Assembly (NCBI RefSeq): GCF_050920415.1
Contig: NZ_CP169309.1
DNA: 64,000 nt
Origin: Escherichia coli
GTDB taxonomy: Bacteria; Pseudomonadota; Gammaproteobacteria; Enterobacterales; Enterobacteriaceae
Direction: 5' to 3' (one strand)
Positions 41,905 to 44,553 of the stretch are shown piece by piece. The notes under the pieces were generated by a model. That model did no database searches, was not told the DNA's origin, and was given only the letters and a program-made list of their open reading frames with translations. Numbering within the stretch: the first letter of the stretch is position 1; each line of letters begins with the position of its first letter. The translations under genes were made by a program, and so were the position numbers.

Positions 41905-44553
41905 ATGAATACGTGTATGCCTGACCATTCCCTTTTCCGCTTACGGGCGCTTCCCTGGTGCGTTGCCGTGGCCATCTCTGGATGCCATATCAATGCCTGG
42001 GCTGATGAAGATATTCAGTTTGATTCCCGTTTTCTGGAATTAAAAGGCGACACGAAAATCGATCTAAAACGCTTTTCAAGCCAGGGTTATGTTGAACCGG
42101 GTAAATACAGTTTACAGGTTGAGGTGAATAAACAGCCATTACCCGGTGAATATGATATTTACTGGTATGCAACAGAAAATGATGCCAATAAGACTTACGC
42201 CTGCCTGTCGCCAGACCTGGTGGCACTGCTTGGTTTCAAAGAAGACATTGCGAAAAATTTGCAATGGGTTCACGACGGTAAATGCCTGAAGCCAGGCCAA
42301 TTTGACGGTCTGGAAATGCGCGCTGATTTAAGCCAGTCCGCACTCCTTATCAGCTTGCCGCAGGCTTATCTTGAATACAGCGATGTCGACTGGGACCCTC
42401 CCTCGCGCTGGGATGATGGCATCTCAGGTTTAATTGCCGATTACAGCATCAATGCCCAAACCCGACACGAAGAAAATGGCGGTGATGACAGCAACGATAT
42501 CAGCGGCAACGGTACGGTTGGCGTTAACCTCGGGCCGTGGCGCTTGCGAGCCGACTGGCAAAGCGATTATCAGCATACCCGCAGTAATGATGAAGAGACA
42601 GAAGACAGCACCGAAAGAAACTGGGACTGGAGCCGTTACTATGCCTGGCGCGCGTTACCGAGCCTGAAAGCCAAACTGGCACTCGGTGAAGATTACCTCG
42701 ATTCCGATATATTCGATGGCTTTAACTACATCGGCGGTAGTATCAGTACTGACGATCAAATGCTGCCGCCGAACCTGCGCGGCTATGCCCCGGATATTTC
42801 CGGCGTGGCCCATACGGCGGCGAAAGTCACCGTTAGCCAGGCCGGGCGTATAATTTATGAAACCCAGGTGCCAGCCGGGCCATTCCGTATCCAGGATCTC
42901 GCCGATTTTAGCTCTGGTACGCTGCATGTGCGCATTGAAGAGGTGAACGGTCAGGTGCAGGAGTATGACATCAGCACTGCCTCCATGCCGTTCCTGACTC
43001 GCCCGGGCCAGGTGCGCTACAAAATTATGATGGGGCGACCACAGGAGTGGGGGCACCATGTGCAAGGCGGGTTCTTTTCCGGTGGCGAAGCGTCCTGGGG
43101 GATAGCAAACGGCTGGTCACTGTATGGCGGGGCGCTTGGCGATGAAAATTACCAGTCAGCCGCGCTTGGGATTGGTCGCGATCTCTCCGTTTTCGGTGCG
43201 ATGGCCTTTGATATCACCCACTCGCATACCCGACTTGACGATTCGACCGCTTACGGAAAAAGCACGCTCGACGGTAACTCTTTCAGAGTCAGTTATTCCA
43301 AAGACTTTGATGAACTCAACAGCCGCGTCACCTTCGCCGGATACCGCTTCTCGGAAGAGAACTACATGACCATGAGCGAGTACCTGGACGCAAATGACAG
43401 CGCAATGGTCCGCTCAGGCAATGATAAAGAGATGTACACCGCCACCTATAACCAGAACTTCAGGGATGCCGGTGTTTCTGTTTACCTGAACTATACGCGC
43501 CACACCTACTGGGATCGTGATGAACAGACCAACTACAACGTAATGCTCTCCCACTATTTCAATATGGGCGGCATTCGTAACATGAGTATTTCTCTGACCG
43601 GTTATCGCTACGAGTATGACGACAGTGCTGACAAAGGCGTCTACATCTCCTTAAGTATGCCGTGGGGCGATAGCAGCGTTGTGAGTTACAACGGCAACTA
43701 CGGTAGTGGTTCAGACAGCAGCCAGGTAGGGTATTTCAGCCGTATCGATGACGCCAGTCATTATCAGATAAACGTGGGCAACAGTGAAAATCACTCCAGC
43801 GTGGATGGTTATTACAGCCGTGACGGTTCAATGGCCCATGTGGACCTCAGTGCCAACTACCATGAAGGGCAGTACACCTCTGCCGGGTTGTCGCTACAGG
43901 GCGGCGCTACGCTCACGGCTCACGGTGGCGCGTTGCACCGTACTCAAAATATGGGCGGTACGCGATTACTGATTGACGCTGACGGTGTTGCTGACGTACC
44001 GGTCGAAGGAAACGGTGCAGCGGTGTACACCAATATGTTTGGCAAAGCCGTCGTTGCCGACGTCAATAACTACTACCGTAACCAGGCCACGATTGACCTG
44101 ACCAAACTGCCAGAAGACGCCGAAGCCACACAGTCAGTGGTGCAGGCGACGCTTACCGAAGGCGCCATTGGCTACCGTCAATTTGCGGTCATCAGTGGGC
44201 AAAAGGCGATGGCTGTCCTGCGCATGAGTGATGGCAGTTACCCGCCATTTGGTGCGGAAGTGAGAAACGAACATGACCAGCAGGTCGGCCTGGTTGATGA
44301 TGACGGCAACGTCTATCTGGCCGGGGTAAAAGCGGGCGAACACATGCGTGTCTCGTGGAATGGCGAACCTCACTGTGAGATCTCACTGCCAGACCCGCTA
44401 CCCGCCGACCTGTTCAACGGCCTGTTACTGCCGTGCAAGCAACAAGGCGCGGTGATGCCTGCGGCTCCGGCAGAGATTAAACCGATGATTCAGGAACAAA
44501 CGCAGCAGGTCACACCTGGCGCGGAACCCATGGCTATTTCAGCAAACCAATAA
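41905..44553 (+). CDS. yfcU: Fimbrial outer-membrane usher, intact
   Basis: 882 aa single ORF. Confidence 0.85.
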   Translation: MNTCMPDHSLFRLRALPWCVAVAISGCHINAWADEDIQFDSRFLELKGDTKIDLKRFSSQGYVEPGKYSLQVEVNKQPLPGEYDIYWYATENDANKTYACLSPDLVALLGFKEDIAKNLQWVHDGKCLKPGQFDGLEMRADLSQSALLISLPQAYLEYSDVDWDPPSRWDDGISGLIADYSINAQTRHEENGGDDSNDISGNGTVGVNLGPWRLRADWQSDYQHTRSNDEETEDSTERNWDWSRYYAWRALPSLKAKLALGEDYLDSDIFDGFNYIGGSISTDDQMLPPNLRGYAPDISGVAHTAAKVTVSQAGRIIYETQVPAGPFRIQDLADFSSGTLHVRIEEVNGQVQEYDISTASMPFLTRPGQVRYKIMMGRPQEWGHHVQGGFFSGGEASWGIANGWSLYGGALGDENYQSAALGIGRDLSVFGAMAFDITHSHTRLDDSTAYGKSTLDGNSFRVSYSKDFDELNSRVTFAGYRFSEENYMTMSEYLDANDSAMVRSGNDKEMYTATYNQNFRDAGVSVYLNYTRHTYWDRDEQTNYNVMLSHYFNMGGIRNMSISLTGYRYEYDDSADKGVYISLSMPWGDSSVVSYNGNYGSGSDSSQVGYFSRIDDASHYQINVGNSENHSSVDGYYSRDGSMAHVDLSANYHEGQYTSAGLSLQGGATLTAHGGALHRTQNMGGTRLLIDADGVADVPVEGNGAAVYTNMFGKAVVADVNNYYRNQATIDLTKLPEDAEATQSVVQATLTEGAIGYRQFAVISGQKAMAVLRMSDGSYPPFGAEVRNEHDQQVGLVDDDGNVYLAGVKAGEHMRVSWNGEPHCEISLPDPLPADLFNGLLLPCKQQGAVMPAAPAEIKPMIQEQTQQVTPGAEPMAISANQ

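Follow-up and report, generated by a model that had tools for sequence, protein, structure and literature searches.

Does an uninterrupted fimbrial usher gene set an Escherichia coli strain apart from others of its species? The question is raised by a stretch of 64,000 nucleotides from E. coli contig NZ_CP169309.1 (assembly GCF_050920415.1), hereafter the window. A preliminary description of this DNA read positions 41905-44553 as the intact usher of the Yfc chaperone-usher fimbriae, and described the same gene as disrupted in strain K-12. We found that K-12, not the window strain, is the outlier, and that the Yfc usher is normally intact in this species. Judging from the genes present, their intactness and homology, synteny, the distribution of alleles and purifying selection, the window very probably carries the Escherichia cryptic clade I allele of the core Escherichia Yfc operon, of the pi class (Pap/Stf-like), at the conserved sixA-smrB locus.

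The usher gene and its intactness across E. coli

The ORF listing of the window confirmed the uninterrupted reading frame of 882 amino acids (aa) at exactly these positions (41905-44553, + strand, ATG start). At equal base frequencies, 882 stop-free codons occur by chance with a probability of around 4e-19. The product carries the Pfam domains PapC_N, Usher and PapC_C, and its residues 34-843 align in one stretch with residues 2-808 of the solved PapC (E = 2.5e-220). Over its full length, it scores 1809 bits with NCBIfam NF011812, for which the cut-off is 972. The true start is probably the second ATG, at position 41917, which would give 878 aa instead of 882. This is where the annotation of a nearly identical record by the Prokaryotic Genome Annotation Pipeline (PGAP) starts and where the alignment with K-12 yfcU begins. 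A Shine-Dalgarno-like cGGAT lies 10-14 nucleotides (nt) 5' of this ATG in all six alleles compared, and the upstream ATG at 41905 reads ATA in K-12. This correction is cosmetic, and we describe the gene as follows:

41917-44553, + strand: outer-membrane usher, YfcU-type, pi class, 878 aa (domains, PapC alignment and NF011812)

The K-12 usher had been rightly described as a pseudogene: in NC_000913.3, yfcU (b4661; 2,646 nt) carries this annotation. The lesion consists of one in-frame amber codon at position 579 (TAC for Tyr579 changed to TAG) without any frameshift. Other E. coli have TAC at this site, and so does the window (Tyr576, nt 43642). An 81-mer centred on the K-12 TAG has an exact match in 363 of 5,426 complete genomes. 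The eight matches listed are mostly named K-12 laboratory strains, such as MG1655, JM109, ER1709 and a Dam/Dcm strain; also among them is TP6-1, a hospital isolate labelled Homo sapiens, whose usher PGAP flags with 'internal stop'. The remaining genomes with a K-12-type yfcU (approximately 2,676) have at least one difference within the 81-mer, and in all four non-K-12 yfcU genes that we sampled, the codon is TAC and the usher is intact at 880-881 aa. Overall, sensitive blastn detected an usher homolog over 80% or more of the query in 5,385 of the 5,426 genomes. Wurpel et al. (2013) likewise described Yfc as core-associated and intact in all genomes that they examined (PMC3559732). A literature search on the yfcU pseudogene or a stop codon in the yfc operon returned nothing relevant. 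Because a full-length homolog is nearly universal, the stop codon is a peculiarity of K-12 and the published survey agrees, an intact usher at the yfc locus is to be expected and is not notable.

These counts also bear on the reading in which the window simply holds the K-12 operon without the K-12 lesion, so that the intact usher would set the strain apart from typical E. coli. Locus and gene order are indeed the same as in K-12, and the K-12 usher is a pseudogene. This reading is nevertheless refuted, and we give it next to no credence: the TAG is rare, full-length ushers are the rule and the sampled non-K-12 ushers are intact. Moreover, the usher DNA is only 78.7% identical to that of K-12 when the flanks are 90-96% identical, and the adhesin protein only 39%. 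To judge from these comparisons, the window operon is not K-12 yfc minus a stop codon but a diverged allele.

A mosaic Yfc allele from cryptic clade I

The usher is the second gene of a seven-gene chaperone-usher operon (41272-47721), in which all seven genes are uninterrupted, lie in the same orientation and are separated by tight or overlapping junctions. Major subunit, usher, chaperone, three minor subunits and YfcO-type adhesin follow each other in the Yfc organization. The operon is flanked by fadI-fadJ-sixA upstream and smrB-prmB-aroC-mepA downstream, which is the locus of K-12 yfcOPQRSUV. Its other genes, and a hairpin read from the sequence at its end, are:

41272-41832, + strand: major fimbrial subunit, YfcV-like, 186 aa (Pfam Fimbrial, E = 4e-17; signal peptide; C-terminal ...ITYL)
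44573-45322, + strand: periplasmic PapD-like chaperone, YfcS-like, 249 aa (Pfam PapD_N and PapD_C)
45338-45853, + strand: minor fimbrial subunit, YfcR-like, 171 aa (Pfam Fimbrial)
45850-46338, + strand: minor fimbrial subunit, YfcQ-like, 162 aa (Pfam Fimbrial; overlaps the YfcR-like gene by 4 nt)
46335-46874, + strand: minor fimbrial subunit, YfcP-like, 179 aa (Pfam Fimbrial; overlaps the YfcQ-like gene by 4 nt)
46876-47721, + strand: putative tip adhesin, StfH/YfcO family, DUF2544, 281 aa, intact (Pfam DUF2544, E = 1.7e-73)
47729-47760, no strand assigned: hairpin with a perfect stem of 14 bp, between the adhesin gene (+) and smrB (-, convergent)

The hairpin is probably a terminator, although it has no clear T-run. 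The fimbrial subunits have signal peptides, and their C-terminal motifs are those usually seen in such proteins. The chaperone aligns with PapD (7lhg_D, E = 9e-57), including the equivalents of Arg8 and Lys112 and the C-terminal pair of cysteines. According to Wurpel et al. (2013), the Yfc type is defined by the position of the locus in the genome and by usher phylogeny. The window operon agrees with it in locus, usher and gene order, and, by pairwise identity and profile score, its usher falls with YfcU and not with other E. coli ushers (76-94% protein identity to five other allele classes at the locus). The PapC-like usher domains and the PapD-like chaperone with Arg and Lys in its cleft are those of the pi clade of chaperone-usher systems (Nuccio and Baumler 2007). 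In an alignment of adhesins at the locus, the N-terminal 165 aa or so are hypervariable and the C-terminal 115 aa or so are conserved. This pattern and the family name suggest a two-domain tip adhesin.

The divergence from K-12 is not evenly distributed along the locus. DNA identity falls from 90-96% in the flanking genes to 67-80% in the fimbrial genes, and the adhesin gene has no blastn match in K-12. At the protein level, identity to K-12 is 82% for the major subunit, 84% for the usher, 88% for the chaperone, 59% for R, 78% for Q, 71% for P and 39% for the adhesin. The corresponding values for the O157-type cluster are 82%, 85%, 80%, 51%, 44%, 53% and 76%. The operon therefore reads as a mosaic, with Q and P nearest to the K-12 type, the adhesin nearest to the O157 type and the regulatory region nearest to that of E. 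coli strain 165. At least five usher allele classes occupy the locus in E. coli, with DNA identities to the window usher of 96-100%, about 80% (O157-type), about 79% (K-12-type), about 76% and about 74%. As already noted in the genome paper of E. coli W, both this strain and O157:H7 carry a different pi-type cluster in place of K-12 yfc at sixA-yfcN (PMC3032704).

The ratio of nonsynonymous to synonymous divergence (dN/dS) of the usher is comparable to the low values of sixA and fadJ: it is 0.07 in comparison with three other alleles, and 0.02-0.09 among clade I copies. Such values point to long-term purifying selection. The yfc usher alleles thus appear to be old allelic lineages that are kept under purifying selection and shuffled by recombination. 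A different origin would be the horizontal import of an operon from outside Escherichia, which replaced the resident yfc. This origin could account for the high synonymous divergence (dS) of the usher from K-12 (1.42, compared to 0.21-0.62 in the flanking genes) and for the mosaic affinities of the operon. We consider import quite unlikely, since the GC content of the operon (51.2%) is similar to that of the window (49.6%), synteny is perfect and the borders bear no scars of mobile elements. Furthermore, the at least five allele classes at the locus are similarly diverged within E. coli, which fits long-standing diversity and intragenic recombination; this search covered E. coli genomes only.

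The genes that adjoin the operon, fadJ (37892-40036) and smrB (47779-48330), share 89.9% and 90.2% of their DNA sequence with K-12 (dS 0.46-0.62), and prmB, further out, shares 95.6% (dS 0.21). The higher divergence of fadJ and smrB is as expected if divergence hitch-hikes with old fimbrial alleles. In the strain 165 allele, two additional genes, one for an AAA family ATPase (452 aa) and one for a hypothetical protein (219 aa), lie between the adhesin gene and smrB. Neither has a counterpart in the window or in the remaining alleles, and together they may represent the insertion of a small defence-like module.

To place the window within the species, we relied on the housekeeping DNA of prmB-aroC-mepA. 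In this region, around 19 of the 5,426 genomes reach an identity to the window of 98.2% or more, and none of the others exceeds 95.7%. The same high-identity genomes have an usher of the window type. They include EC42405 and 2013C-4282, both listed by name among the complete-genome strains of Escherichia cryptic clade I in a paper that puts average nucleotide identity at more than 98.3% inside the clade and at more than 95.9% towards E. coli sensu stricto (PMC10100065). Because housekeeping identity groups the window with these two strains, we assign it to clade I.

The closest relative of the window is MFDS1022581 (NZ_CP169399.1), with one base different over the 18.6 kb around the operon. 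The draft assembly GCA_053046425.1 is 100% identical to the window locus over 14.6 kb. Identical ushers of 878 aa are found in many deposited assemblies (170 index blocks), and the matching RefSeq entry is WP_001354797.1. The operon is an ordinary member of a well-described fimbrial type, already deposited and annotated, and adds nothing new to the databases.

MFDS1022581 differs from the window outside the fimbrial locus. In the window, a P22-like prophage is apparently integrated at the tRNA-Arg(CCU) gene argW (1-30600, with the tRNA at 30526-30600); MFDS1022581 lacks it and has dsdA and sucrose (csc) genes adjoining argW. Positions 1-19868 of the window are about 96% identical to the Escherichia phages APC_JM3.2 and IME10, and an intS-like integrase gene (approximately 29121-30500) is 95% identical to intS of K-12 CPS-53. 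The prophage also contains the sar antisense RNA (Rfam RF00262) at 24712-24777. A further Rfam match, naRNA4 (CssrE, a nucleoid-associated RNA derived from repetitive extragenic palindromes), lies at 53116-53194 between yfcL and mnmC (81.8 bits). The same scan found no RNA family match in or near the fimbrial operon.

The upstream region and the predicted assembly of fimbriae

In the preliminary description, the operon sits behind a long AT-rich region (40730-41270), and the base composition agrees:

40725-41271, + strand: AT-rich intergenic/regulatory region from sixA to the major-subunit gene, 547 bp, 26.9% GC (composition)

No other part of the 64 kb is as rich in AT, and the window as a whole has 49.6% GC. 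A second AT-rich stretch (32751-34100, about 30% GC) overlaps a hypothetical gene of 399 aa between mlaA and fadL, at the position of yfdF in K-12. The equivalent of the 547-bp region measures 547-680 bp with 26-32% GC in all six alleles compared. Only strain 165, which represents the fifth allele class, has a region homologous to that of the window over the entire length (76.6% identity), and only short patches can be aligned with K-12. The region starts with the sixA terminator hairpin (40731-40765) and contains two promoter-like sites on the + strand (40827-40856 and 40892-40919), each with 10 of 12 matches; these are consensus matches only. No ORF of at least 80 aa appears between sixA and the major subunit in the ORF listing.

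We considered two known switches for this region and rejected both. Pap-type phase-variable promoters have a pair of GATC sites some 100 bp from each other, with papI/papB-like genes upstream. The intergenic region contains a single GATC (40784) and no papI/papB-like regulator genes, and thus gives no evidence of a Dam/Lrp switch of this type. An imperfect inverted repeat of 17 nt (40924-40940 and 41244-41260, 82% complementary) brackets 303 bp with a geometry that recalls fimS. There is no recombinase gene nearby and such repeats are expected in DNA with 27% GC, so that we treated the repeat as probably due to chance and rejected a fim-like invertible promoter.

The locus is assembly-competent on paper, and all seven genes being open makes the assembly of Yfc fimbriae plausible, as had been suggested from the intact usher; what did not hold is intactness as a distinguishing trait of the strain. 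Expression, control by H-NS, fimbriation and a receptor are features that we infer. Transcription would probably begin within the 547-bp upstream region of 27% GC. Under laboratory conditions, H-NS probably silences the operon, as it reportedly does the cryptic fimbrial operons of K-12. Silencing would be consistent with the AT-richness of the region and with the literature on K-12 fimbriae: the survey of Wurpel et al., citing Korea et al. 2010, reports that cryptic fimbriae of commensal E. coli K-12 are H-NS-repressed (PMC3559732). In its summary of the same study, K-12 yfc is scored as 'functional' despite the amber codon (PMC3559732). Once expressed, the subunits would, following the Pap/Fim paradigm, be exported by Sec across the inner membrane, and the PapD-like chaperone would capture and stabilize them by donor-strand complementation. 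The PapC-like usher would then polymerize them adhesin first, namely the DUF2544 adhesin, the three minor subunits and finally the rod of major subunits.

Lesions within clade I and comparison with known systems

Several observations weigh against our reading of the operon as a maintained, assembly-competent clade I locus. The first is that the usher is inactivated in about 10 of the 22 complete genomes with a window-type usher, probable cases included. Five of the 22 have a verified intact usher (MFDS1022581, EC42405, 2013C-4282, 2017-02-2CC and 06-00048), and seven were outside the check. We verified a change of Trp244 from TGG to TGA (W244*; nt 42646, TGG in the window) in E200086, Z0117EC0005, AST85 and 100117. 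Four more genomes have the same single mismatch, and the same stop is probable there. Z0117EC0005 carries a deletion of 261 bp as well. In 2EC1, the usher is disrupted by a frame-shifting tandem duplication of 74 bp and the adhesin is truncated beside IS2. The usher of 24A16CRGN010 has an annotated frameshift due to the deletion of 1 nt, which could be an assembly error. Even the closest relative of the window is affected: in MFDS1022581, the adhesin gene has a nonsense mutation (C to T at the position equivalent to 47305 of the window, where the adhesin is intact) and is a PGAP pseudogene; this base is the sole difference between the two strains in the 18.6 kb. This mutation and the usher lesions indicate that part of the lineage is evidently under relaxed selection for the operon. 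The other two observations concern single elements of the operon. The AlphaFold2 model of the adhesin, built on an alignment of nine sequences, is poor (mean predicted local distance difference test score 55, and below 50 in the C-terminal half). Compared with the PDB by Foldseek, this poor model had no match at E <= 0.001 (TM <= 0.25), and a sequence search against the PDB found no relative of solved structure. Finally, the high-affinity H-NS motif TCGATAAATT, with at most two mismatches allowed, occurs twice in the intergenic region, compared to 2.0 expected in shuffles. The H-NS-silenced promoter type suggested in the preliminary description is therefore supported by AT-richness, but not by H-NS motifs beyond base composition.

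A fully intact seven-gene operon is thus not universal in the window's own lineage, although the sample is small. If the operon were a dispensable and silent clade I locus in neutral decay, it would be intact in the window only by luck and the strain would make no Yfc fimbriae in any niche. The lesions listed above, which recur independently in relatives, are what would be expected in this case. Still, we hold such decay to be unlikely, as dN/dS of the usher is as low among the intact clade I copies as between alleles, and the same 14.6 kb are found intact and unchanged in public assemblies. In addition, the W244* genomes, African stool isolates from Mali and Gambia, may be one largely clonal group, which would inflate the apparent frequency of inactivation.

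The preferred reading remains that of a core Yfc allele under purifying selection, within which the adhesin follows a course of its own. Clade I adhesins are 44-81% identical to that of the window, while the ushers stay at 96% or more, and the adhesin of 2013C-4282 resembles that of strain 06-00048 and not that of the window. The low identity of the adhesins as opposed to the ushers indicates swapping of adhesin modules. It is conceivable, if rather doubtful, that Yfc is under host-driven, two-way selection in clade I, with strong conservation of usher and chaperone, exchange of the adhesin, and the repeated knockouts in mostly human-derived isolates representing pathoadaptive or immune-evasion loss. 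If these knockouts proved independent and host-associated, Yfc would exemplify a 'core' fimbria that is lost in this way in an emerging lineage of intestinal pathogens.

For discovery, the locus is of little value, and its main contribution is a corrected perspective, in which K-12 is atypical and an intact Yfc usher normal. It also places the window in cryptic clade I, an emerging source of Shiga toxin-producing and enterotoxigenic E. coli (STEC- and ETEC-type) strains. As the 'core' yfc locus comprises at least five deeply diverged, mosaic allele classes, typing by polymerase chain reaction or BLAST based on the yfc genes of K-12 or uropathogenic E. coli would miss or misclassify the window allele. 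The clade I lesions are slightly better ground for interest than the comparison with K-12. Because the usher or the adhesin is inactivated in a sizeable fraction of this allele group, the presence of the operon in virulence-gene surveys does not equal function.

Among known systems, K-12 yfcOPQRSUV shares with the window the sixA...smrB locus, the order and orientation of the seven genes and the length of the usher. It differs in the amber codon 579, in operon DNA that is 67-80% identical and in a regulatory region that can barely be aligned. The cluster of O157:H7 and E. coli W (ECs3222-ECs3216) has the same locus and architecture and the closest adhesin outside clade I (76% protein identity, with 85% for the usher), but its minor subunits are only 44-53% identical to those of the window. 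Low et al. (2006) reportedly called the O157:H7 cluster 'yfc'. In the E. coli W genome paper, the O157/W cluster is named epo/eso (PMC3032704). P (Pap) fimbriae are similar in the alignments of usher with PapC and chaperone with PapD, and in an operon that encodes a rod and several minor tip subunits. Unlike them, the window has no papI/papB-type regulators, one upstream GATC, a DUF2544 adhesin in place of PapG and a location in the chromosomal core instead of a pathogenicity island. The best NCBIfam matches of the chaperone and of the minor and major subunits are StfD, StfE, StfF, StfG and StfA of Salmonella Stf (stfACDEFGH), and PGAP names the adhesin 'StfH/YfcO family'. Every Stf equivalog score is below its cut-off, and the window proteins are therefore homologs, not equivalogs, of Stf.

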